IMG/VR virus record: IMGVR_UViG_2537561965_000009 | Strand: one strand, 5' to 3' | DNA: 52,523 nucleotides | Source: a virus | Lineage: Duplodnaviria > Heunggongvirae > Uroviricota > Caudoviricetes | Shown: piece by piece, positions 14,705-49,100 of the stretch | Layout: each line of letters starts with the position of its first letter | Numbering within the stretch: position 1 is the stretch's first letter | The notes under the pieces: generated by a model | Told to the model about the DNA's origin: nothing | The model's database searches: none | Seen by the model: the letters and a program-made list of their open reading frames with translations, nothing else | Program-made: the position numbers and the translations under genes

Positions 14705-15070
14705 ATGACTGAACGCATAGAATTTGTTTTGCCTTACCCGCCAACGGTGAACACTTACTGGCGACGTCGTGGCAGCACATATTTTGTATCAAAAGCCGGT
14801 GAGCGTTATCGCCGTGATGTGGCGCTTATTGTTCGCCAGCAGCGGCTGAAATTAAACCTGTCCGGAAGGCTGGCGATAAAGATTATTGCAGAGCCACCGG
14901 ATAAACGTCGTCGTGACCTGGACAATATCCTGAAAGCACCACTGGATGCGCTGACGCATGCCGGACTTCTCATAGACGACGAGCAGTTTGATGAAATCAA
15001 TATTGTGCGCGGTCAGCGCGTTCCTGGGGGGCGGCTGGGCGTGAAGATTTACAAAATTGAGAGTGAGTGA
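14705..15070 (+). CDS. rusA: Holliday junction resolvase RusA
   Basis: 121-aa ORF MTERIEFVLPYPPTVNTYWRRRG... with the RusA signature; overlaps the upstream stop. Confidence 0.85.
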   Translation: MTERIEFVLPYPPTVNTYWRRRGSTYFVSKAGERYRRDVALIVRQQRLKLNLSGRLAIKIIAEPPDKRRRDLDNILKAPLDALTHAGLLIDDEQFDEINIVRGQRVPGGRLGVKIYKIESE

Positions 15071-15624
15071 TCGTAAATATGATATATCCGGAAATTACAG
15101 GCAAAAGCGGCGAGCATTTACGTCTAAAAACGCTGGAAGCCGTCTGGATCCAGGGGAAATTACGGATGTGGGGGCGTTGGTCGTACATAGGTGGTGGCAA
15201 ACCAGGAAATATGTTCAATCAGTTGCTGGCATCCAAAACACTTACAAAAACTGCGATCAATGAAGCTCTGCGCAGAATAAAAAAATCAGGGATTGATAAA
15301 ACTGAGCTGGAAGCGTTTTTGCGTGAGATGATCAACAGCAAGCAAAAGAGCGGGCTGGCTTATTGTACTGATGCCGAGGCGTTATGTATCGATCGGGTAA
15401 TTAGTAAAGTGTTGGCAGAGCATCCGGGATTGATTTGTATCCTCCGACAAAGATATGAAGGGCTGGGAATGAGCAAGCTGAAAATGGCAGAACAGTTAAA
15501 AAAGAATCACCCTGACTGGAGCCTGAAAACTTGTAGAAATCGCATTGATGTTTGGTTGGCGATGGCTGAAACCATGCTTTTCCTTCCAATGTGCGTGGCA
15601 CTTCGGTGCTTTTCTGATAACTGA
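15067..15624 (+). CDS. late-gene antiterminator Q-like protein
   Basis: 185-aa ORF (GTG 15067 or ATG 15079) directly after rusA and before the late/lysis region; contains an RMWGRWS motif reminiscent of Q-type antiterminators; the call is mainly positional. Confidence 0.5.
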   Translation: MIVNMIYPEITGKSGEHLRLKTLEAVWIQGKLRMWGRWSYIGGGKPGNMFNQLLASKTLTKTAINEALRRIKKSGIDKTELEAFLREMINSKQKSGLAYCTDAEALCIDRVISKVLAEHPGLICILRQRYEGLGMSKLKMAEQLKKNHPDWSLKTCRNRIDVWLAMAETMLFLPMCVALRCFSDN

Positions 15625-15713
15625 TGATAGAAGTGCATCAGCTATCAATCTTGTTGACGTTCATCAAGGTCTGGACAATACTTACGTTAAGTTCCAACAT
15701 ATGGAAGATAAGA

Positions 15714-16904
15714 ATGATATTTACACGATTGAGATTTATCAATTTGTACGCTTTTGAGGATGCAGAGCTTAACCTGTCCTATCCAAGGAAACCTGTAAAC
15801 ATGCCTCTTGATGGGGAGTTTTTGGCTGGACGGCCTAAATTTTACTATAAAAAAGTCTGTATCATAACGGGGGGAAATGCTTCAGGCAAGACGTCACTAG
15901 GGCGAATTCTTTGTGGAATTCAGGTGTTTCTAAGAACCAAAGAGTTGCGGAGTAATCTGCGAGTGAATAATAAAAATAATGATGCTTCGTTTGAAGTAGA
16001 CTTTGCTACGGAGGAACATTTTCATCATCGTTTGTATGTACGCTTTGCTACCAGTGAAGGCGGAGCGCACATAATCAAAGAAATTAAATATGGTTTTGTT
16101 CAAATAGCATTAAATGATTCTTGCTATAAAACCACAGAAAAACTGAATCAACTCTTTTCTGGAAGGGCCCCAGGAGATACAGAATATTTTTTTCAGGAAC
16201 TAGCTACTGATAGCGAACCAGTTGTATTGGAGTTTTTCAAGCAACTTAAGTTTTTTGGTGGATGGTACTATTTGTTGTCTGAAACTAAAGAAAGTACCAC
16301 TGCAATTTCAGGAATGAATAAAAATATTCTTGAAAGGATAATTCGCACTTTCGATTCAAGTATTATAGGAGTTACCGAGATGCTGGAGTCTGAAAGTGAC
16401 GGGGATGAAAATAAATCATCTGCGGTTTATCTGATTAAATTTAAAAACTCTGATTCTCTTGTCGTTACCAGTAAAGGTGAAATAATTAACTCAGACCGTC
16501 TTTCTCGAGGAACATACGAGGCAGTGACGGTAGCGCATTTTATAAGCGCTATTATCTCTGATTGTGAAAGACTAGGTAAGCAATCTCTAATACCATCAAT
16601 GACTTATTTTCTTGACGAGAAATTGGCTTATACACATTCAGAGTTAGAGCGTATGATTGTGGCGCTGATTATATCTAATTTGAAAGAAAATACTCAGTTT
16701 TTCTATACAACGCATAACATGGATATTTTTGAGTTGGATCTGCCTGTTCACTCGTTCATTTTTATTAAAAAAACGAAAGACTATTCGGAGTTTGTTGAAG
16801 CAAATTCAGTTGTTAAAAAAAATGACCGTAGCATGCGAAACGCTGTTGAGAGAGATGTCTTTGGTGTCTTACCTGACACATCATTAGTATCGGAGCTACT
16901 CTGA
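15714..16904 (+). CDS. ABC-type (AAA_21/SMC-like) ATPase, first gene of a candidate two-gene defence module
   Basis: 396 aa from ATG 15714; N-terminus MIFTRLRFINLYAFEDAELNL; Walker A ITGGNASGKTS; signature-like LSRGTYEAV; Walker B YFLDE; H-loop-like TTHN; strongly AT-rich codon usage unlike flanking phage genes; stop overlaps next start (TGATG). Confidence 0.7.
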   Translation: MIFTRLRFINLYAFEDAELNLSYPRKPVNMPLDGEFLAGRPKFYYKKVCIITGGNASGKTSLGRILCGIQVFLRTKELRSNLRVNNKNNDASFEVDFATEEHFHHRLYVRFATSEGGAHIIKEIKYGFVQIALNDSCYKTTEKLNQLFSGRAPGDTEYFFQELATDSEPVVLEFFKQLKFFGGWYYLLSETKESTTAISGMNKNILERIIRTFDSSIIGVTEMLESESDGDENKSSAVYLIKFKNSDSLVVTSKGEIINSDRLSRGTYEAVTVAHFISAIISDCERLGKQSLIPSMTYFLDEKLAYTHSELERMIVALIISNLKENTQFFYTTHNMDIFELDLPVHSFIFIKKTKDYSEFVEANSVVKKNDRSMRNAVERDVFGVLPDTSLVSELL

Positions 16905-17437
16905 TGGCGGGGTTGTCTAAAATAAGAATAATTTTTGTCGAAGGTGAAACAGAAAACTCTCTTTTTCAGAAGATGAAACAACAGAGAGTTATTGATGCCA
17001 AATCAATTGTAAAAAGAAACTTTTGGCAAGAGAGCATAAGAAATTATGCGATTACTATTCCGAAGGGAAGTGATATACTAATTGTCTTTGATAGTGATGA
17101 AGTGGAGCAATCTGCAAGATTCATTGAAAATGTAAAGTTCCTTAAAAACAGAGGGCATAAAGTTTATCTTTTGCAGCAGAAAAGAAATTTTGAGGAGGAG
17201 TTGGCCTGGTGTTGCGGAATTCCTGTAAAAAAACTAATTGCTGGGTTCTGTGCAAAAAAAACATCGGGTATAAATGATTTCAAGAGAGATTTTATTGCTT
17301 GTAACAATCAACTTTCAAAGTTACTGAAAATGGGCATGCAGGAAACTAAGTGGTTTACAAGAGATTTACATACTGTATTGGAGCCTGTTGCAAGTTTTAA
17401 GTCATCTTTTTCTAAACATTTCAGGTTAACAAGATGA
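16904..17437 (+). CDS. small TOPRIM-like protein (RloB/OLD/DUF4435-like), second gene of the candidate module
   Basis: 177-aa ORF; N-terminal IRIIFVEGETE and downstream ILIVFDSDEV give the Glu ... DxD arrangement of TOPRIM-type nuclease domains; translationally coupled to the ATPase gene. Confidence 0.6.
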   Translation: MAGLSKIRIIFVEGETENSLFQKMKQQRVIDAKSIVKRNFWQESIRNYAITIPKGSDILIVFDSDEVEQSARFIENVKFLKNRGHKVYLLQQKRNFEEELAWCCGIPVKKLIAGFCAKKTSGINDFKRDFIACNNQLSKLLKMGMQETKWFTRDLHTVLEPVASFKSSFSKHFRLTR

Positions 17438-18067: not shown

Positions 18068-19117
18068 ATGGCTAATACTGTAAAAATATCCAGTTGTGAG
18101 TTAATCAACGCTGATTGCCTGGAATTTATCCAGACCTTACCGGAAAACTCTGTCGATCTTATAGTCACAGACCCGCCATACTTTAAAGTGAAACCCGAGG
18201 GCTGGGATAACCAGTGGAAGGGCGACGATGATTACCTGAAGTGGCTGGACCAGTGTCTGGCGCAGTTCTGGCGGGTGCTGAAACCTGTCGGAAGTCTTTA
18301 CCTGTTCTGTGGTCATCGCCTGGCATCTGATATCGAAATCATGATGCGTGAACGCTTCAGTGTGCTGAACCATATTATCTGGGCGAAGCCGTCCGGACGC
18401 TGGAACGGATGCAACAAGGAAAGCCTGCGGGCGTATTTCCCCGCCACAGAGCGCATTCTGTTCGCGGAACATTATCAGGGGCCGTATCGTCCGAAAGATG
18501 CCGGGTATGCGGCGAAGGGCAGTGCACTGAAACAGCATGTGATGGCCCCGCTGATTTCTTACTTTCGTGATGCGCGCGCGGCCCTGGGGATAACGGCAAA
18601 ACAGATTGCAGATGCCACAGGAAAGAAAAACATGGTGTCGCACTGGTTCAGTGCCAGTCAGTGGCAGCTACCGAACGAAAGCGATTATCTGAAATTACAG
18701 TCGCTGTTTGCCCGGGTGGCAGAAGAGAAACATCAGCGCGGTGAACTGGAAAAGCCCCACCACCAGCTGGTGGATACGTATACGTCACTGAACCGGCAGT
18801 ATGTGGAGCTGCAGAGTGAATATAAGCATCTGCGGCGGTATTTTGGTGTGACGGCGCAGGTGCCGTACACGGATGTGTGGACACATAAACCGGTGCAGTT
18901 CTATCCCGGGAAACATCCGTGCGAAAAACCGGCAGAAATGCTGCAGCAGATAATCAGCGCAAGCAGTCGTCCGGGAGACCTGGTTGCAGATTTTTTTATG
19001 GGCTCAGGTTCAACGGTAAAAGCTGCACTGGCGCTCGGGCGTCGTGCGATTGGCGTTGAACTGGAGACCGGACGTTTTGAGCAGACAGTCAGGGAAGTTC
19101 AGGATTTAATCGTTTGA
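18068..19117 (+). CDS. DNA methyltransferase (N6-adenine/N4-cytosine, beta class), apparently orphan
   Basis: 349-aa ORF with motif IV DPPY near the N-terminus and motif I FFMGSGST near the C-terminus; no adjacent restriction endonuclease gene seen. Confidence 0.8.
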   Translation: MANTVKISSCELINADCLEFIQTLPENSVDLIVTDPPYFKVKPEGWDNQWKGDDDYLKWLDQCLAQFWRVLKPVGSLYLFCGHRLASDIEIMMRERFSVLNHIIWAKPSGRWNGCNKESLRAYFPATERILFAEHYQGPYRPKDAGYAAKGSALKQHVMAPLISYFRDARAALGITAKQIADATGKKNMVSHWFSASQWQLPNESDYLKLQSLFARVAEEKHQRGELEKPHHQLVDTYTSLNRQYVELQSEYKHLRRYFGVTAQVPYTDVWTHKPVQFYPGKHPCEKPAEMLQQIISASSRPGDLVADFFMGSGSTVKAALALGRRAIGVELETGRFEQTVREVQDLIV

Positions 19118-19166: not shown

Positions 19167-19242
19167 GGCCCTTTAGCTCAGTGGTGAGAGCGAGCGACTC
19201 ATAATCGCCAGGTCGCTGGTTCAAATCCAGCAAGGGCCACCA
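19167..19242 (+). tRNA. ileZ: tRNA with CAU anticodon, ileX-like (tRNA-Ile2)
   Basis: 76-nt cloverleaf GGCCCTT...AAGGGCCACCA with anticodon loop CUCAUAA; closely resembles E. coli ileX as recalled; same position as ileZ in Stx-type phages. Confidence 0.8.
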
Positions 19243-19249
19243 TCACATA

Positions 19250-19326
19250 CCGCCATTAGCTCATCAGGAAAGAGCGCCAGCCTTCGAAGCTGGTTGCGCG
19301 GGGTTCAAGTCCCCGATGGCGGTCCA
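19250..19326 (+). tRNA. argN: tRNA-Arg (anticodon UCG)
   Basis: 77-nt cloverleaf with acceptor CCGCCAT/ATGGCGG, anticodon loop CUUCGAA, T-arm CGGGGTTCAAGTCCCCG and encoded CCA. Confidence 0.75.
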
Positions 19327-19339
19327 TTATCTGCATCAT

Positions 19340-19416
19340 GCGTTGTTAGCTCAGCCGGACAGAGCAATTGCCTTCTAAGCAATCGGTCACTGGTTCGAAT
19401 CCAGTACAACGCGCCA
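19340..19416 (+). tRNA. argO: tRNA-Arg (anticodon UCU)
   Basis: 77-nt cloverleaf GCGTTGT...ACAACGCGCCA with anticodon loop CUUCUAA. Confidence 0.8.
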
Positions 19417-19707: not shown

Positions 19708-20043
19708 TTATGGACTTTGTTGTTTTAGCCCATAAGGACATATTTGCAGAGTGCAACGGTTATTAAAGCATTCATTCAATACGTTATCTGTATTTGTAGG
19801 GCATTCCTGGCTGTTTTTGATTAAATTCCAGAATGTTTTATTGAATGGTACTACGTTGTAAATGGTTACAGGTAGCACTTTGTTATTGAGCATGATGCCT
19901 GTGTGAGTCAGTGTAAATATACTTTCAGGAGGTAAGAAAGCATCCGATTGATACCAGATTATTAATTTTATTTTACTCCATATGACTGAAAAAGATATTC
20001 CGCATGATGGCTGGATAACTGTATCAATCACAATCCACTTCAT
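19708..20043 (-). CDS. orphan hypothetical protein at the stx-equivalent position
   Basis: 111-aa ORF in a very AT-rich segment between the tRNA genes and the esterase gene, opposite in orientation to the late operon; AAGGA-like SD; no family recognised. Confidence 0.35.
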
Positions 20044-20303
20044 TTAGTTTCCTTGTTTATGCCTTGCTGGTGATGTTCTGAAAAGTATAAATGATATTTT
20101 TGATTGTAAACCATAGAGCAGAATTATTTTTCTGATGTTGTTTATTGTTTATTTAAATGCAGGGTGGTTTATATCTCGTCTTGTAGTTTATCCATGCATA
20201 TCTGCTTGATGATGAGGTTTTTATTTAAGGTATGGTTTTGTGTTTTTTCTGTATTACATGTCAGGTATTTTAAAGAATCATTTTTCAGATGGTGGAAAGA
20301 ACC

Positions 20304-22157
20304 ATGGCATTTAAACACTATGATGTTGTCAGGGCGGCGTCGCCGTCAGATCTTGCGGAAAAGCTGACACATAAACTGAAAGAGGGCTGGCAGCCGTTTG
20401 GTAGTCCGGTGGCCATAACCCCTTATACCCTGATGCAGGCGATTGCAGCAGAAGGTGATGTGGTCGTCAGTGGTGCAACTGAGCCGGAGTGGTACTACGT
20501 CATCGTACTGGCCGGGCAATCCAATGCCATGGCTTACGGTGAAGGGCTTCCGCTTCCGGATTCTTACGATGCGCCCCACCCACGCATTAAGCAACTGGCC
20601 CGTCGCAACACAGTGACTCCCGGTGGTAAAGCATGCGCATTTAACGACATCATTCCGGCAGACCACTGCCTGCATGATGTTCAGGATATGAGCGCACTGA
20701 ATCATCCGAAGGCAGACCTGAGCAAAGGGCAGTACGGCTGTGTCGGCCAGGGCTTACATATTGCCAAAAAACTGCTTCCGTATATCCCGAATAACGCGGG
20801 GATCCTGCTGGTACCATGCTGTCGTGGTGGTTCGGCATTCACCCAGGGCGCGGAGGGGACATTCAGTGCGGACACGGGGGCCAGCCAGGATTCGGCACGC
20901 TGGGGTGTGGGTAAACCGTTATATCAGGACCTGATCGCACGCACCAAAGCGGCATTACAGAAGAACCCGAAAAATGTGTTGCTGGCGGTGTGCTGGATGC
21001 AGGGCGAATTTGACATGAGCGCTGCCACCTACGCACAGCAACCGGACCTGTTCACGGCCATGCTGAAGCAGTTCCGTACTGACCTTTCCGGATTTAACGC
21101 GCAGTGCCATGGCGGCAGTGCTGCAGTTGTACCGTGGATTTGTGGCGACACGACGTATTACTGGAAAAACACATACGGCACACAGTATGACTCCGTCTAC
21201 GGCGCATACAAAAACAGGGAGAGCGACAACGTTTTCTTTGTGCCGTTCATGACCGACGGTAACGGCAACAACACGCCCACCAACTTACCGGCAGAAGACC
21301 CGGATATTGCTGATGCAGGTTATTACGGCGCGCAATCCCGTAGTAATGGTAATTGGGTATCGTCAAACCGCCCGACACATTTCAGTTCATGGGCGCGCAG
21401 GAGCATTATTCCGGATCGTATGGCAACCGCTATTCTGAACGCAGCCGGGCGCACCTCAGCCTTCATCAGTGGTAAGGCACCGGAAATCAAACCCTCGCCC
21501 GGCGTCGACACGCCATCGGGGCCGTCTGAAGATGCATCCGTACGCACAATCTCCCTGTTGCCGACAGCCGGAGAGGCTGCTGCGCAGGGCTGGACCATTA
21601 AGGACGGCGGAATTCAGTTGTCGGGTGGTGTATTTAAGATCACCAAGCAGAGCAATAAAACTTGGTCCCTGATGCATCCGGTGGATGACGCAGTCTCCCT
21701 GCTGACACGGGGTGGCAGACTGAGCTGTAAGTTTCGACTGTCAGGCGCACTGACCAACAACCAGTTCGGTCTGGGAATTTATCTGTATACCGATGTAGCG
21801 TTACCTGACGTCGTGGCGATGACCGGGACTGGTAACCCGTTCCTGATGTCGTTCTTCACCCAGACCACAGACGGCAAACTGAATCTGATGCATCACAGGA
21901 AAGCAGGAAACACAAAGTTGGGCGAGTTCGGGAATTACAGTAACGACTGGCAGACGCTGGAGCTGGTGTTCACCGCCGGCAGTGCCACGGTTACTCCGAA
22001 ACTGAATGGAGTGGCTGGCCCGGCATTCCAGGTCATAAAAGACAGTCTGACACTGGGGCTGAATGCGCTGACGCTGACGGATATTACCAAAAATGCAGCG
22101 TATGGCGTTGAGATAGAAAGTCTGGTGCTGGAGATAAATGCACCAGCATCATCATAA
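20304..22157 (+). CDS. prophage sialate O-acetylesterase (NanS-p-like; DUF1737 N-terminus plus SGNH/SASA esterase domain)
   Basis: 617 aa from ATG 20304 (alternative ATG 20289); N-terminal MAFKHYDVVRAASPSDLAEKL...; esterase motif VLAGQSNAMAYGEG; C-terminal beta-rich probable carbohydrate-binding region; same position as nanS-p downstream of stx in Stx phages. Confidence 0.75.
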   Translation: MAFKHYDVVRAASPSDLAEKLTHKLKEGWQPFGSPVAITPYTLMQAIAAEGDVVVSGATEPEWYYVIVLAGQSNAMAYGEGLPLPDSYDAPHPRIKQLARRNTVTPGGKACAFNDIIPADHCLHDVQDMSALNHPKADLSKGQYGCVGQGLHIAKKLLPYIPNNAGILLVPCCRGGSAFTQGAEGTFSADTGASQDSARWGVGKPLYQDLIARTKAALQKNPKNVLLAVCWMQGEFDMSAATYAQQPDLFTAMLKQFRTDLSGFNAQCHGGSAAVVPWICGDTTYYWKNTYGTQYDSVYGAYKNRESDNVFFVPFMTDGNGNNTPTNLPAEDPDIADAGYYGAQSRSNGNWVSSNRPTHFSSWARRSIIPDRMATAILNAAGRTSAFISGKAPEIKPSPGVDTPSGPSEDASVRTISLLPTAGEAAAQGWTIKDGGIQLSGGVFKITKQSNKTWSLMHPVDDAVSLLTRGGRLSCKFRLSGALTNNQFGLGIYLYTDVALPDVVAMTGTGNPFLMSFFTQTTDGKLNLMHHRKAGNTKLGEFGNYSNDWQTLELVFTAGSATVTPKLNGVAGPAFQVIKDSLTLGLNALTLTDITKNAAYGVEIESLVLEINAPASS

Positions 22158-23749: not shown

Positions 23750-24204
23750 GCAGAGTCGCCGCGATTATTTATGCTCTGGTTATCTGCATCATCGTCTGCC
23801 TGTCATGGGCTGTTAATCATTACCGTGATAACGCAATCGCCTACAAAGAGCAGCGCGATAACAAGGCCAGTGAACTGGAGAAGGCGAACGCCACCATCGC
23901 TGACATGCGGAAGCGTCAACGTGATGTAGCAGAACTCGACGCAAGATACACAAAGGAGCTTGCTGATGCTAACGCGACTATCGAAAGTCTCCGTGTTGAT
24001 GTTTCTGCTGGGCGTAAGCGCCTGCAAGTCGCCGCCACCTGTGCAAAGTCAACGACCGGAGCCAGCGGCATGGGCGATGGAGAAAGCCCAAGACTTACAG
24101 CAGATGCTGAACTCAATTATTACCGTCTCCGAAGTGGAATCGACAAGATAACCGCGCAGGTTAACTACCTGCAGGAATACATCAGGACGCAATGCCTGAA
24201 ATAA
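23746..24204 (+). CDS. Rz: i-spanin Rz
   Basis: GTG start overlapping the R stop; product [38 protein letters not shown]... is close to lambda Rz. Confidence 0.85.
23966..24151 (+). CDS. Rz1: o-spanin Rz1 (lipoprotein) embedded in the +1 frame of Rz
   Basis: 61-aa ORF with AAAGGAG SD; lipobox LLGVSAC and proline-rich mature part. Confidence 0.75.
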
Positions 24205-24236
24205 TTTTTTTGCAAATCACAAAGTCCATTTAATGA

Positions 24237-24259
24237 GCCTCGCGATGCGGGGCTTTTTT
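24237..24259 (+). terminator. rho-independent terminator after the lysis cassette
   Basis: GCCTCGC-GAT-GCGGGGC hairpin followed by TTTTTT. Confidence 0.6.
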
Positions 24260-24408
24260 GCAATAAATGCGTACCGCAACGCATGTTTTTTTTACACCGA
24301 ACCTGCCCCTTTGGAATGGGCCTTTGAGGATACCAGTTAGTGCTGGCGAGCCTCGGTGGGCTGGTTTCCTGTGCGGCAAAGGTTCATTTCAAATGGTAGG
24401 TAAACGTT

Positions 24409-24930
24409 ATGAATATCGTGCCACTTAATTACAAAGGTGAAATTGTCAGTTTCAACACTGATGGTTGGATCAACGTCACAGGTGTTGCTGAGAGATTTGG
24501 GAAACGCATTGATAACTGGATGCGTTTGGCAGAAACGCTTGAATACGTTCGTGCTTTAGACGAAGCGTTGACCGGGAAAGAATCTCAAATTTTACATCCC
24601 TCACAATCGAGGTATGTAAAAACCAGCAAGGCACGAAAGGACAGGGGTGGTGGTACGTGGCTACATCCAAAACTTTCAGTTGCATTTGCCCGTTGGTGTG
24701 ATGCTCGTTTTGCTGTGTGGTGCGACCTGCACATTGATAGTCTGCTTCGCGGTGAACTGACTGAGCAGCAGAAATATGAGCAAGCATGTCGCATTCGCGA
24801 TGACCGGAAATCAAAAGCCAGCAATGGGGCAAGAGAGATGGCTCGCTGGCGATGGGATAAGCCGGTTATTGAAGCAAATGTTGAGTACTGGCGCGAGCAA
24901 CTGCAGTTGACTCTCGATATCGCGTGCTGA
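24409..24930 (+). CDS. KilA-N domain protein
   Basis: 173-aa ORF; N-terminal region ...GWINVTGVAERFGKRIDNWMRL...GGGTWLHPKLSVAFARWCDARFAVW matches the KilA-N DNA-binding domain pattern. Confidence 0.7.
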   Translation: MNIVPLNYKGEIVSFNTDGWINVTGVAERFGKRIDNWMRLAETLEYVRALDEALTGKESQILHPSQSRYVKTSKARKDRGGGTWLHPKLSVAFARWCDARFAVWCDLHIDSLLRGELTEQQKYEQACRIRDDRKSKASNGAREMARWRWDKPVIEANVEYWREQLQLTLDIAC

Positions 24931-25639
24931 TGGCAAACGCAAAACTGCGTTATCGAAAAAATCAAAGCATTACTAGAACTGAGCAACGGCTATCCATTAC
25001 AAAGCCCATCTACGGGTGGGCTTGATAATGAAACCGTGATTTACATCCCCACAATCCGGGTATGTAAAAGATAGTTCAGGCGAGAACGGATTTAACTAAA
25101 TCTGTGCGCCACCAGTTAACGGCAGTACCACGAAACAACCCAAGCCAGTAAGTGGGGAAATAACACCGGCAGCCACTGAAAGATGAACCTCCTGCCTTAT
25201 GGCAAAAAGGATTCTTTGTGGTGGCGGACTGATGGAAAGACATCCTAATTTCAGCCAAACATTGAAGGAGTTGTTATGTCAGCAGAAGGTTTCAATAACC
25301 CATCAAAATTCCGGGATGAGTGGGATAGCAGCGTAAAGAGTAAGTGATGCCATCACAAAAGCCATTCCCTACAGAGTGGCTTTGATAATGGCTTATACCC
25401 TACACGGGATAACTTAACTGATATCCCTTTTAAAGGATAAAGGTATTCAAGCCTGACACATCATGCGCTGTATCGTCGCCGTATTCCCGTATTAACAGAG
25501 ACCGTAGCCCGACGGGGAACTCCTTCTGCGCGAGTGTGCGGGAATAATCAAAAACGATGCACACCGGGGTTACCGGGTACACATATTTCATCATGCCAGC
25601 GAGTCCGGTTCTGGCACGGAAGAAACCGGACGTTATGAT

Positions 25640-26050
25640 TTAGTGCGGAAATATTTGTGTAGTGTTCTGAATGTTCTCAGTAAAGAGTAATGAATTATCA
25701 AAGGTATAGTAATACCTTTTGTTTTCGTGGATATTTGTAATCCATCTGAAAACCCCTGCTGTAGCAAGATTTTTCCTGTATTCGTAAAATGATAACTCTC
25801 CTGATTTGAATCCTTTTAATGTGGCTTCTATAAGGCATTTATTTTTTGAAAATCTTACATTTACAACCTTACCCTGTCCTTTTATTAAAACCGTATTATC
25901 GTTTTCAAGAACAAGATGAATATTCTCTGTGGCTAAATAGTAAATGTAATGTGAGACATTGTGACGTTTTAGTTCAGAATAAAACCAGTGATAGTTTAAA
26001 TTATTTCGCACTTTATCGAATATTTGTTTAAAAATGGCAACCTGAGCCAT
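25640..26050 (-). CDS. AT-rich hypothetical protein (moron candidate)
   Basis: 136 aa from ATG 26050 with GGAAGG SD; low-GC gene unlike its neighbours; no family recognised. Confidence 0.45.
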
Positions 26051-26107
26051 TGTAGTACCTTCCATGTGATATGAAGGTACCTAGTCTGCACGATTATCTA
26101 AATTGCT

Positions 26108-26341
26108 TCAATCTGGTCTGACCTGCTTTCTGAGCAATTCAGTAATGTCACTCTTTTCTTTGTTTGCTTCAGGCGAAACTCTTTTTTCTGAGCACAGTCT
26201 TCGGCGGCAGGCTTCAATGACCCAGGCTGAGAAATTCCCAGACCCTTTTTGATCAAGAGCGATGTTAATTTGTTCAATCATTTGGTTAGGAAAGCGGATG
26301 TTGCGGGTTGTTGTTCTGCGGGTTCTGTTCTTCGTTGACAT
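26108..26341 (-). CDS. small ribbon-helix-helix-like DNA-binding protein
   Basis: 77-aa ORF; segment RFPNQMIEQINIALDQKGSGNFSAWVIEACRRRL resembles RHH (Arc/CopG-like) folds; sits just left of cos. Confidence 0.5.
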   Translation of the reverse strand: MSTKNRTRRTTTRNIRFPNQMIEQINIALDQKGSGNFSAWVIEACRRRLCSEKRVSPEANKEKSDITELLRKQVRPD

Positions 26342-26540
26342 GAGGTTGCCCTGTATTCAGTGTCGCTGATTTGTATTGTCTGAAGTTGTTTTTACGTTAA
26401 GTTGATGCAGATCAATTAATATGATACCTGCGTCATAATTGATTATTTGACGTGGTTTGATGGCGTAGATGCACGTTGTGACATGCAGATGATAATTATT
26501 ATCATTTTGCGGGTCATTTCCGGCGATCCGACAGGTTACG

Positions 26541-26552
26541 GGGCGGCGACCT
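26541..26552 (+). other. cosN, the 12-nt cohesive-end site (lambda type)
   Basis: Exact GGGCGGCGACCT followed by the lambda-like cosB region up to the Nu1 start at 26730. Confidence 0.85.
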
Positions 26553-26729
26553 CGCGGGTTTTCGCTATTTATGAAAATTTTCCGGTTTAAGGCGTTTCCG
26601 TTCTTCTTCGTCATAACTTAATGTTTTTATTTAAAATACCCTCTGAAAAGAAAGGAAGCGACAGGTGCTGAAAGCGAGCTTTTTGGCCTCTGTCGTTTCC
26701 TTTCTCTGTTTTTGTCCGTGGAATGAACA

Positions 26730-27249
26730 ATGGAAGTCAACAAAAAGCAGCTGGCTGACATTTTCGGTGCGAGTATCCGTACCATTCAGAACTGGCAGGA
26801 ACAGGGAATGCCCGTTCTGCGAGGCGGTGGCAAGGGTAATGAGGTGCTTTATGACTCTGCCGCCGTCATAAAATGGTATGCCGAAAGGGATGCTGAAATT
26901 GAGAACGAAAAGCTGCGCCGGGAGGTTGAAGAACTGCGGCAGGCCAGCGAGGCAGATCTCCAGCCAGGGACTATTGAGTACGAACGCCATCGACTTACGC
27001 GTGCGCAGGCCGACGCACAGGAACTGAAGAATGCCAGAGACTCCGCTGAAGTGGTGGAAACCGCATTCTGTACTTTCGTGTTGTCGCGGATCGCAGGTGA
27101 AATTGCCAGTATTCTCGACGGGCTCCCCCTGTCGGTGCAGCGGCGTTTTCCGGAACTGGAAAACCGACATGTTGATTTCCTGAAACGGGATATTATCAAA
27201 GCCATGAACAAAGCAGCCGCGCTGGATGAACTGATACCGGGGTTGCTGA

Positions 27250-27275
<26 letters not shown>
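26730..27275 (+). CDS. Nu1: terminase small subunit Nu1
   Basis: 181-aa product MEVNKKQLADIFGASIRTIQNWQEQGMPVLRGGGKGNEVLYD... matches lambda Nu1 as recalled. Confidence 0.95.
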
Positions 27276-46189: not shown

Positions 46190-49100
46190 ATGGCAGTAAA
46201 GATTTCAGGTGTACTGAAAGACGGCACAGGAAAACCGGTACAGAACTGCACAATCCAGCTGAAAGCAAAACGTAACAGCACCACGGTGGTGGTGAACACG
46301 CTGGCCTCAGAAAATCCGGATGAAGCCGGGCGTTACAGCATGGACGTTGAGTACGGTCAGTACAGCGTTATTCTGTTGGTGGAAGGATTCCCGCCGTCAC
46401 ATGCCGGGACCATCACCGTGTATGAAGATTCCCGACCCGGTACGCTGAATGATTTTCTCGGTGCCATGACGGAGGATGATGCCCGTCCTGAGGCACTGCG
46501 CCGTTTTGAACTGATGGTGGAAGAGGTGGCGCGTAACGCGTCCGCGGTGGCACAGAACACGGCAGCCGCGAAGAAGTCAGCCAGCGATGCCGGCACATCA
46601 GCCCGTGAGGCGGCAACCCATGCGACTGATGCTGCAGGCTCAGCACGCGCAGCCAGCACGTCAGCCGGACAGGCTGCTTCGTCGGCTCAGTCAGCGTCTT
46701 CCAGCGCAGGAACGGCATCAACAAAGGCCACTGAAGCATTAAAAAGTGCTGCCGCTGCAGAGTCCTCAAAAAGCGCGGCGGCTACCAGTGCCGGTGCGGC
46801 GAAAACGTCAGAAACGAATGCGGCAGCGTCACAACAATCAGCAGCCACTTCTGCATCCACCGCGACTACGAAAGCGTCAGAAGCAGCCACTTCAGCACGG
46901 GATGCGTCGGCTTCAAAAGAGGCGGCAAAATCATCAGAAACGAACGCAGCCTCGAGCGCCAGCAGCGCAGCTTCCTCGGCAACGGCGGCAGCAAATTCTG
47001 CGAAGGCGGCAAAAACGTCTGAGACAAACGCCAGGTCTTCTGAAACGGCAGCGGAACAGAGTGCCTCAGCTGCGGCAGGCTCAAAAACAGCGGCTGCGTC
47101 GTCTGCCAGTGCAGCGTCAACAAGTGCCGGGCAGGCCTCAGCCAGTGCCACCGCCGCCGGAAAATCGGCAGAAAGCGCCGCATCGTCTGCTTCAACAGCC
47201 ACAACGAAGGCTGGCGAAGCCACTGAACAGGCCAGCGCAGCAGCGAGGTCTGCTTCCGCAGCGAAGACATCCGAAACGAACGCGAAAGCGTCGGAAACCA
47301 GCGCAGAATCCTCAAAAACGGCTGCCGCATCGTCCGCCAGTTCGGCGGCGTCATCGGCATCATCTGCGTCTGCTTCAAAAGATGAGGCGACCAGACAAGC
47401 GTCAGCAGCGAAGAGCAGCGCCACGACGGCATCCACGAAGGCAACAGAGGCGGCAGGCAGTGCGACGGCAGCATCTCAGAGCAAAACTACTGCTGAATCC
47501 GCTGCGACCCGTGCGGAAGCTGCTGCTGATCGTGCTGAAGAGATTGCCGGTGCAGTTGCGATGGAAGACGCAAGCCTTACAACTAAAGGTGTTGTGAAAC
47601 TTAGCAGTGCTGTTGATAGCACCAGTGAATCGCTGGCCGCAACGCCAAAAGCAGTTAAAGCAGCCAATGACAATGCGAATAGCAGGGTGCCATCTAACCG
47701 AAAAGTTAACGGAAAAGCACTGACTGCGGATATAACATTAACGCCGAAAGATATTGGTACTTTAAATTCAGTAACGATGTCTTTCTCTGGCGGGGCTGGG
47801 TGGTTCAAACTGGCTACGGTTACCATGCCACAAGCGAGTTCCATCGTTTACATCGCATTGATTGGTGGCGCTGGTTACAACGTCGGTTCCCCACATCAGG
47901 CAGGCATTTCAGAACTGGTTCTACGAGCAGGCAATGGAAACCCCAAAGGAATTACCGGGGCTTTGTGGAAGCGTACAGCCGTCGGATTAACGAATTTCGC
48001 CTGGATCAACACATCCGGCGATACATATGATATTTACGTTGAGATTGGCAATTATGCGACGAGTGTAAATATCCATTGGGATTGTACTGCAAATGCGTCA
48101 GTTTCTGTTTATACCTCGCCAACATATTCAGCGAGTAAGCCTTCCAGCGTTACCTATGGTGTTGTTTATACGATGTATAGCTCACATCAGAAACCTACAC
48201 CATCAGATATTGGAGCACTGCCAACAACCGGAGGAACAGTTTCAGGTCCGTTGTCTGTTACAGGTGGATTAACTGGTTCATTGAATGGTAATGCAAGTAC
48301 AGCCACGAAATTGCAGACGGCAAGATCTATCGGTGGAGTTGTTTTCGACGGTTCTGCAAATATTAACCTTCCAGGTGTAAACACTACGGGTAATCAGAAC
48401 ACCACTGGTAATGCTGCAACTGCTACAAAACTTCAGACTGCAAGAAAAATATCCGGTGTTCCATTTGATGGTTCTACTGATATCACTTTAACCGCCGCGC
48501 ATGTGGCTGCTTTTGCCAGAAGGGCAACGGATACATATGCCGATGCGGATGGTGGCGTTCCCTGGAATGCCGAATCAGGCGCTTACAATGTCACCCGCTC
48601 TGGCTACACCTATATTCTGGTTAACTTCTATACCGGAGTCGGAAGTTGCCGGACCCTGCAGATGAAGGCGCATTACAGAAATGGAGGTCTGTTCTACCGT
48701 TCCTCAAGAGATGGCTATGGTTTTGAGGAAGGCTGGGCAGAAGTTTATACCTCGAAAAATCTTCCACCAGAAAGCTACCCAGTTGGCGCACCAATCCCGT
48801 GGCCATCAGATACCGTTCCGTCTGGTTATGCCCTGATGCAGGGGCAGACTTTTGACAAATCTGCTTACCCGAAACTTGCAGCGGCTTATCCGTCAGGCGT
48901 GATCCCTGATATGCGTGGCTGGACGATTAAGGGCAAGCCCGCCAGTGGTCGTGCCGTATTGTCTCAGGAACAGGATGGCATTAAATCGCATACCCACAGC
49001 GCCAGCGCATCCAGTACGGATTTGGGGACGAAAACCACATCGTCGTTTGATTACGGCACTAAATCCACGAATAACACCGGGGCGCATACCCATAGTATTA

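Follow-up and report, generated by a model that had tools for sequence, protein, structure and literature searches.

In phage lambda and in the Escherichia coli K-12 prophage DLP12, the cos-proximal right end is arranged in the order ylcI-type open reading frame (ORF), ybcW/lambdap79, ybcV/lambdap78 and bor, and in the K-12 prophage Qin the genes ynfO and ydfO (b4533–b1549) are oriented divergently to nohA, a homologue of Nu1, with cos in between. Here, we report on a stretch of 52,523 nucleotides from a virus of the Caudoviricetes (IMG/VR record IMGVR_UViG_2537561965_000009; the whole stretch is termed the window), in which two small minus-strand genes, encoding a DUF3950 protein of 77 amino acids (aa) and a DUF1398 protein of 136 aa, respectively, are located beside a lambda cos site. 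An earlier note on this DNA had described them as a ribbon-helix-helix (RHH)-like gene followed by a gene of unknown family, and had considered either an antitoxin–toxin-like or small defence pair or a moron, the second gene having been acquired separately. Our analysis reveals that the locus consists of ynfO and ydfO, known from E. coli prophages but as yet uncharacterised, beside the lambda packaging site, that the two genes are functionally independent and not obligately linked, and that they became neighbours by accident, when a cassette was inserted into a variable slot.

The Qin locus matches the window in the length of both products (77 and 136 aa), in the 57-bp gap between the genes and in the positions of a PdhR-box core and a Fur site, whereas the DUF1398 allele of the window is only 75% identical to YdfO and the hairpin in the spacer is stronger in the window. 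Moreover, Qin is a cryptic remnant, whereas the copy described here resides within an apparently complete lambdoid prophage. In lambda and DLP12, both families are likewise encoded on one strand between Rz and cos, in the same cos-proximal region and together with the Fur box. However, ybcW is located between the two genes, the DUF3950 protein ends in a shorter and different C-terminal tail (64 aa), and bor follows next, whereas neither ybcW nor bor is present in the window.

The lambda morons bor and lom are accessory genes that are transcribed on their own and lie inserted among conserved genes of the phage. The DUF1398 gene is comparable to them in its atypical composition, in its presence or absence between conserved flanks, in its orientation antisense to late transcription, and in being host-regulated and non-essential for lytic growth, as seen for lambdap78. 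Unlike lom and bor, it has no known phenotype or surface localisation, and a scan for factor-independent terminators did not find a clean one for it. Type II toxin–antitoxin (TA) operons with RHH antitoxins, such as ParD/ParE, CopG-type RelB and MazE of Mycobacterium tuberculosis, share with the window a small RHH-like gene in the first position, which is followed at a short distance by a second small gene in the same orientation, and the location on a mobile element. In contrast to these operons, the genes of the window are not co-inherited, lambda and DLP12 have another gene within the pair, and the second protein, which shows no match to a toxin fold or family, occurs alone in many genomes. 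Arc and Mnt of phage P22 resemble the 77-aa protein in size, predicted β-strand–helix–turn–helix order, basic N-terminal arm and phage origin, but the 77-aa gene is located at the junction of the lysis and packaging genes, not in the immunity region, and has no known operator.

Identity and linkage of the two genes

A homology search, which the earlier note had proposed as a check, assigned both products to curated families and revealed orthologues in K-12. The 77-aa protein matches DUF3950 (PF13132) with 74.6 bits (cut-off 25; E 5e-21) and NCBIfam YlcI_YnfO_N (NF041551) with 35.7 bits (cut-off 30), corresponds to phrog_949 and is identical to K-12 YnfO at 75/77 residues. The 136-aa protein is a member of DUF1398, as indicated by a Pfam match of 147 bits (cut-off 22) and by the fold of YdfO, the solved structure of this family (PDB 2HH8), with which it shares 102 of 136 residues; hence, its description as a protein of unknown family does not hold. 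Since the Pfam scores lie far above the cut-offs and the ratio of nonsynonymous to synonymous substitutions (dN/dS) of the 77-aa gene is low, both ORFs are, as judged from these comparisons, real genes and not chance ORFs. Over the first 50 codons, lambda-type and Shiga toxin (Stx)/HNH-terminase-type lineages yielded dN/dS values of 0.02-0.10, with dN 0.05-0.08 and a saturated dS of 0.9-2.5. The low ratio thus indicates that DUF3950 is a real protein on which strong purifying selection acts, in phages without DUF1398.

The coordinates of both minus-strand ORFs and the 57-bp gap between them were verified from the ORF list and the sequence, as was their position next to cos, the start codon of the 77-aa gene lying 200 bp from cosN. 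As listed, the second ORF spans 25640..26065 (minus) and would yield 141 aa from an alternative ATG at 26065; with the internal ATG at 26050 as the start, the product has 136 aa, which is the form annotated by RefSeq in near-identical prophages, and a GGAAGG Shine-Dalgarno sequence can be read 7 nt 5′ of this codon. Nu1 and gpA lie to the right of cosN and the lysis genes to the left, and the locus represents the ‘right end’ of a lambda-like prophage. On its left, the two-gene block is preceded by genes for a signal-arrest-release (SAR)-type endolysin, Rz and a KilA-N protein, and the flanks of cos can be aligned to the right end of lambda as well as to the cos regions of K-12 Qin and DLP12. 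The ynfO–ydfO block or parts thereof are present in 4888 of the 5426 complete E. coli genomes, and also in lambda itself.

tblastn over 50,697 phage records detected DUF3950 in 155 and DUF1398 in 43 of them. DUF3950 is solitary in Stx-type phages and in phages 434, 2H10, 569R3 and JLK-2012. In Stx2a_WGPS8, 569R3 and JLK-2012, it is divergent from the adjoining HNH-TerS-TerL genes and followed by no co-oriented gene; in 2H10 it adjoins Nu1-A, and in 434 the next gene is bor. In lambda and K-12 DLP12, the opposite-strand gene ybcW/lambdap79 separates the two families, and the DUF1398 gene is intact while the DUF3950 protein is devoid of the YnfO-type tail. Conversely, K-12 ycgX is a solitary DUF1398 gene beside bluR. 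When one genome per species was scanned with a 5-sequence profile built from distant members of DUF1398, 20 loci were obtained, which belong to Kluyvera, Pseudocitrobacter, Klebsiella, Raoultella and Salmonella diarizonae. These loci are chromosomal, with neighbours such as a sulfur transporter/gapC/aldA, MASE4/cold-shock genes and sopE. A DUF3950 ORF within 6 kb was found at none of the 20, even at E≤10, and likewise none contains lambda packaging or lysis genes. Among the complete E. coli genomes, DUF1398-like DNA is present in 5376 and DUF3950 DNA in 4187; in total, the 5426 genomes contain 8879 places with DUF1398 and 9865 with DUF3950. The scans of viral contigs with each protein gave only near-identical copies and are uninformative for linkage at distance.

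The two families also differ in their rate of divergence, as the N-terminal domain of DUF3950 is near-invariant, compared with a 25% difference between alleles of DUF1398. A single TGA separates ynfO from ydfO in Qin-type loci, where both share the same reading frame, so that the use of genetic code 4 has led to a false 233-aa ‘fusion’ in hundreds of gene calls from metagenomes. The two-domain DUF3950–DUF1398 entries in the databases were discarded accordingly, as they result from reading the ynfO TGA stop codon as Trp; the spacer of the window contains an additional in-frame TAG. Taken together, these results correspond to the outcome that the earlier note had named as refuting its proposal, namely that the 77-aa protein is conserved among phages and has no relation to the gene behind it, and the pairing suspected in the note does not reflect an obligate link.

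The DUF1398 cassette in a variable slot

The much lower GC content ascribed to the second gene was borne out: it amounts to 31.1% (29.9% at third codon positions, GC3), compared with 44.4% for the 77-aa gene and 51.0% for the whole window, and merely 0.8% of 411-nt windows are equally AT-rich. The decrease in GC content begins already within the C-terminal tail of DUF3950. As the tails vary while residues 1-52 are near-invariant and the GC content falls in the tail, the junctions of recombination or mosaicism are located within the 3′-terminal part of this gene.

The DNA right after the DUF1398 stop codon (~25630-25345) is homologous to the DNA directly after DUF3950 in phages 434 and Stx2a_WGPS8, that is, the gene is present or absent at the same position between conserved flanks. 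The first element of this left flank is an inverted repeat (25603..25631), the homologue of which directly follows DUF3950 in both of these phages; it is possibly an atypical transcript end without a U-tract. A non-coding block of ~250 bp common to 434 and the Stx2a phages, which begins with this CCGGTT…AACCGG hairpin, forms the left boundary of the slot. It harbours a 54-aa ORF (25430-25594, minus; GC3 0.60) that is annotated in phage Kati. This ORF shows no family matches and its Stx2a homologue is interrupted by an in-frame stop codon, as read from the sequence; it is probably not conserved as a protein.

On the other side of the cassette, DLP12 has retained, upstream of ybcV and despite the presence of ybcW, the last ~20 nt of a ynfO-type gene together with the PdhR-box core GGTCAGACC, and the DUF1398 gene therefore carries its own upstream region. 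In addition, lambdap78 was found by CRISPR interference (CRISPRi) to be non-essential for lytic growth of lambda (PMC10695390), and an antisense placement relative to the lytic genes is characteristic of moron loci (PMC7067206). The atypical composition, the cassette structure between conserved flanks, the separate upstream region and the dispensability of lambdap78 support the view of the earlier note that the second gene is a separately acquired moron. The features of the locus are listed in Table 1.

Table 1. Positions of the genes, flanks and sites at the ynfO–ydfO locus (coordinates of the window).
Feature	Position	Strand	Basis or remark
77-aa ORF (DUF3950)	26108..26341	minus	ORF list and sequence
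136-aa DUF1398 gene (YbcV/YdfO/YcgX family)	25640..26050	minus	AT-rich; moron cassette (supported)
Intergenic spacer between the 77-aa and 136-aa genes, 57 bp	26051..26107	minus	
lambda cosN core GGGCGGCGACCT	26541..26552	+	exact single match; packaging-site marker
Nu1	26730-27275		right of cosN, with gpA; ORF list and family matches
Conserved left flank of the variable slot	25345..25602	.	alignment; homologous to 434 and Stx2a phages
Hairpin GTCCGGTT / AACCGGAC, 13-nt loop	25603..25631	minus	directly after DUF1398 stop; inverted repeat
Fur-box-like site, 16/19 to GATAATGATAATCATTATC	26491..26509	.	one match; 0 in 100 shuffles
Palindrome ATGATAAT-A-ATTATCAT	26489-26505		overlaps Fur-box-like site; inverted-repeat search
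sigma-70-like promoter candidate ATGACC-17-TATCAT	26489..26517	minus	toward 77-aa gene; consensus scan
PdhR-box-like sequence CAGGTCAGACCAGAT	26111..26125	minus	last codons of 77-aa gene

Properties of the two proteins and regulatory sites

The 77-aa protein is composed of a basic N-terminal arm, a core comprising residues ~13-52 and a variable C-terminal tail. In the family alignment, the N-terminal 52 residues are near-invariant and are followed by tails of several unrelated types (YnfO, YlcI, Stx and others). The AlphaFold2 monomer is extended over residues 1-18 and contains two helices (H19-32 and H34-52) joined by the turn G33-S-G-N36, with predicted local distance difference test values of 71-84 in the core; the strand of the RHH fold is not formed in this monomer, and the layout is otherwise RHH-compatible. 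A hallmark of the RHH fold is a tight G-x-S/T/N turn between the two helices, which the turn of the 77-aa protein resembles as read from its sequence. Furthermore, the protein aligns in register with P22 Arc over the strand and helix A, though without a significant sequence or structure match, and gives a weak HicB-like PHROG match (E 0.007), and the structural neighbours with the best low root-mean-square deviation are RHH antitoxins, among them MazE6/4/7, Rv0298, TacA3 and ParD/PrpA. Thus, the designation as RHH-like remains plausible through several weak lines taken together, none of which is a single significant match, and the N-terminal ~50 residues most likely form a dimeric RHH DNA-binding domain, as far as the model indicates. 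Operator-like repeats upstream of the gene (e.g. ATCAATTA-N17-TAATTGAT) were rejected, as they occur at the level expected by chance for AT-rich DNA and are absent from Stx-type phages. A DUF3950 match in a Pasteurella phage proved spurious, being located on the wrong strand inside a repressor gene.

In lambda, the DUF3950 ORF is of the YlcI type, comprises 64 aa and is located at ~48110-48304 (minus; tblastn identity of 94.5% over 55 aa). It is annotated neither in RefSeq NC_001416.1 nor in J02459 (region 46300-48502), and is therefore missing from the annotated genes that the essentiality map by CRISPRi covers.

For the DUF1398 protein, family, PADLOC and structure comparisons revealed no match to toxin or defence families or folds, and the alignment displays no conserved catalytic residues. 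The matches to HEPN_AbiA_CTD (15.8 bits; cut-off 27), Csx23 and anthranilate synthase were dismissed as sub-threshold noise; in the PADLOC-DB scan Csx23 (E 0.025) was the only match of DUF1398, and the 77-aa protein had none. The labels ‘head protein’ (phrog_413; given by PHROG and in RefSeq phage records) and ‘putative envelope protein’ attached to DUF1398 members, including lambdap78, are unsupported, because the gene is antisense to the late operon and non-essential and because solitary chromosomal homologues exist; they look like a propagating mis-annotation. The product looks cytoplasmic. Overexpression of YdfO was reported to raise the resistance to oxidative stress, with toxicity unmentioned, and ydfO is induced by ionic liquid (PMC4077768). 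The K-12 homologues of the gene are transcribed and regulated in cryptic prophages according to published data: a pdhR mutant contains 10-fold less ybcV mRNA (PMC7660256), and ybcV is strongly down-regulated by copper and listed under the control of Nac.

A Fur-box-like palindrome (26489-26509) is located ~35-50 bp to the left of cosN and 230 bp upstream of Nu1, and is retained in Qin, DLP12 and lambda (~48.4 kb in NC_001416). In Qin, a Fur site at position -233 of nohA was identified by in vivo capture and gel shift, and a strong Fur cluster was predicted at nohB in DLP12 (PMC2189734); owing to its distance of 230 bp from Nu1, the site in the window is the counterpart of the nohA site. The assignment to nohA and nohB in that study predates the annotation of ynfO and ylcI. 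Between cos and the 77-aa gene, ATGACC-17-TATCAT is the only promoter-like site on the minus strand, and its -10 element overlaps the Fur box; it may serve as the promoter of the 77-aa gene. As Nu1 is transcribed from the late operon in a functional phage, the Fur site would more plausibly act on the divergent DUF3950 gene than on nohA/Nu1, and possibly on read-through into DUF1398 as well.

The PdhR-box-like sequence is positioned ~60 bp upstream of the DUF1398 start codon and matches the core of the published site exactly, in line with the PdhR site reported between ynfO and ydfO (PMC7660256). A consensus scan did not yield a clear promoter in the 57-bp spacer. The spacer contains an 8-bp inverted repeat (26055-26062 / 26073-26080), the 3′ arm of which covers the GAAGG Shine-Dalgarno sequence of DUF1398. 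A role of this hairpin in translational control was considered and rejected, since its predicted stability (-19.4 kcal/mol; z = -1.8) is not significant and it is only partly conserved in Qin and DLP12. An Rfam scan of positions 24200-26800 gave no match.

Alternative explanations and implications

We consider it fairly probable that the ynfO–ydfO block, which is located between the lysis genes and cos and antisense to the late operon, consists of two independent genes acting as follows. The 77-aa DUF3950 protein would be a conserved small basic regulator of lambdoid phages comparable to P22 Arc and Mnt, and in lambda-type phages its gene would probably be transcribed from the promoter overlapped by the Fur site, and thus be derepressed under iron limitation in the lysogen. 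The DUF1398 gene would represent an AT-rich moron cassette that was placed in the variable slot downstream of DUF3950, brought along its upstream region with the PdhR box, is non-essential for lytic growth and responds to host factors and stress. Its product, which has the appearance of a non-enzymatic α/β ‘platform’ protein, probably binds a partner or ligand and may benefit the lysogen. Several observations weigh against this explanation. There is no terminator between the genes in the window and in Qin, and hence they may be co-transcribed there. The YnfO-type C-terminal tail co-occurs with a directly adjacent DUF1398 gene, which an advocate of a TA module could read as a toxin-binding tail. 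A search for a DNA target of the 77-aa protein gave none, and the lambda-type and Stx-type lineages have no operator-like repeat in common. Moreover, the Fur-box-like site is absent from Stx-type phages and was originally assigned to nohA (PMC2189734), and the promoter scan was overall at the level of chance (5 found, 3.7±2.4 expected).

The same arrangement could be read as a type II TA module, with the 77-aa protein as an RHH antitoxin whose C-tail neutralises a DUF1398 toxin and whose N-domain autorepresses the operon. The regulator-first order on one strand with a 57-bp gap and without an intervening terminator, the RHH antitoxins among the best structural neighbours together with the weak HicB-like match, the variation of the tail with the downstream content, and the sub-threshold HEPN_AbiA_CTD match would fit such a module. 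Nevertheless, we regard it as highly improbable, because the traits by which type II TA systems are recognised were not found. The families are not co-inherited, as evident from the counts in phage records and E. coli genomes, from the solitary DUF3950 genes and from the solitary DUF1398 genes at all 20 distant loci and at ycgX. A conserved tight bicistronic operon is likewise not apparent, given the 57 bp in the window and Qin and the intervening ybcW in lambda and DLP12, which keep an intact DUF1398 gene next to a DUF3950 protein without the YnfO-type tail. Furthermore, the second protein has neither a toxin fold or family match nor conserved catalytic residues, overexpression of YdfO was reported to be beneficial (PMC4077768), the structure of this protein was solved alone, and the near-invariant DUF3950 N-domain stands against the 25% difference among DUF1398 alleles. 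The antitoxin–toxin-like or defence pair proposed earlier is thus not supported.

A contribution of one or both genes to anti-phage defence, superinfection exclusion or anti-defence within a cos-side moron hot spot is unlikely as well. It would agree with the position antisense to the late genes, which is typical of prophage accessory loci (PMC7067206), and with the host-interaction genes bor and ybcW/lambdap79 that the slot also houses, the latter of which triggers the Vulcan NADase defence (bioRxiv 10.64898/2026.09.04.749371, 2026 preprint). However, PADLOC gave no match above noise, literature searches turned up no report of such a function, DUF1398 genes are also stable chromosomal genes beside gapC/aldA, MASE4/cold-shock genes and bluR, and the known regulation of DUF1398 is related to metabolism and stress (PdhR, Nac, copper and ionic liquid). 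We likewise doubt, though a little less strongly, that the 77-aa protein is a packaging accessory factor that binds near cosQ/cosN and is linked to the packaging module and not to the downstream gene. DUF3950 is under strong purifying selection and always directly beside packaging genes of two terminase systems (Nu1/A and HNH-TerS-TerL), and YlcI/YnfO genes are listed in capsid-forming phage-inducible chromosomal island satellites with their own terminase genes (PMC13612085). On the other hand, the gene is oriented opposite to the late operon and so is not expressed by late transcription, its ORF is unannotated in reference lambda, and its upstream sequence is entirely different between lambda-type and Stx-type phages. 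In addition, small cos fragments suffice for cosmid packaging, and no factor besides terminase, gpFI and IHF is known from lambda genetics to act at cos.

With regard to the neighbouring features, ybcW/lambdap79 is absent from the window, and Vulcan escape phages lose ybcW through recombination with Qin (2026 preprint), which recreates the ynfO–ydfO arrangement exactly as in the window. The KilA-N gene (24409-24930, +) is an insertion that separates Rz from the ynfO–ydfO block, and its product has a Rha/ORF11CD3-like C-terminal part and a weak PADLOC match to PDC-S22 (E 1e-5). The MRE162 prophage, which is otherwise near-identical, lacks this gene. Right behind the gene of a Q-like antiterminator (DUF1133, 15067-15624), a low-GC (~33-35%) gene pair (15624-17437, +) encodes a 426-aa AAA_15 ATPase, which matches AbiLi in PADLOC (E 1e-25; AriA and mad3 more weakly), and an abutting 177-aa protein without a family match. 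This pair is more credible as a defence module than the ynfO–ydfO pair. The region upstream of the lysis genes contains a gene for a DNA methylase (18068-19117), three clustered tRNA genes, Met(CAT)-Arg(TCG)-Arg(TCT) (19167-19416), a low-GC 111-aa ORF on the minus strand without a family match (19708-20043) and a gene for a NanS-p-like esterase (DUF1737+SASA+DUF6645; 20289-22157). This layout between 18068 and 22157 recalls that of lambdoid prophages of the Stx type.

Neither gene is new, as both have curated families and K-12 orthologues; they count among the ubiquitous genes of the y-ome, and one structure has been solved. Since the evidence points away from TA and defence functions, the locus is unimportant as a candidate for such roles, and the accidental nature of the pairing should stop similar calls of ‘regulator-first pairs’ at a locus as common as this one. 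Across lambdoid lineages, strong purifying selection acts on the DUF3950 gene next to cos, yet this gene is uncharacterised and unannotated in the lambda reference. It is conceivable, albeit speculative, that DUF3950 is an overlooked regulator coupling the iron status of the host to the cos-proximal slot (DUF1398, ybcW and bor) or to read-through of the late operon or of packaging. If so, this iron-coupled regulator would constitute a new regulatory gene in the best-studied phage.

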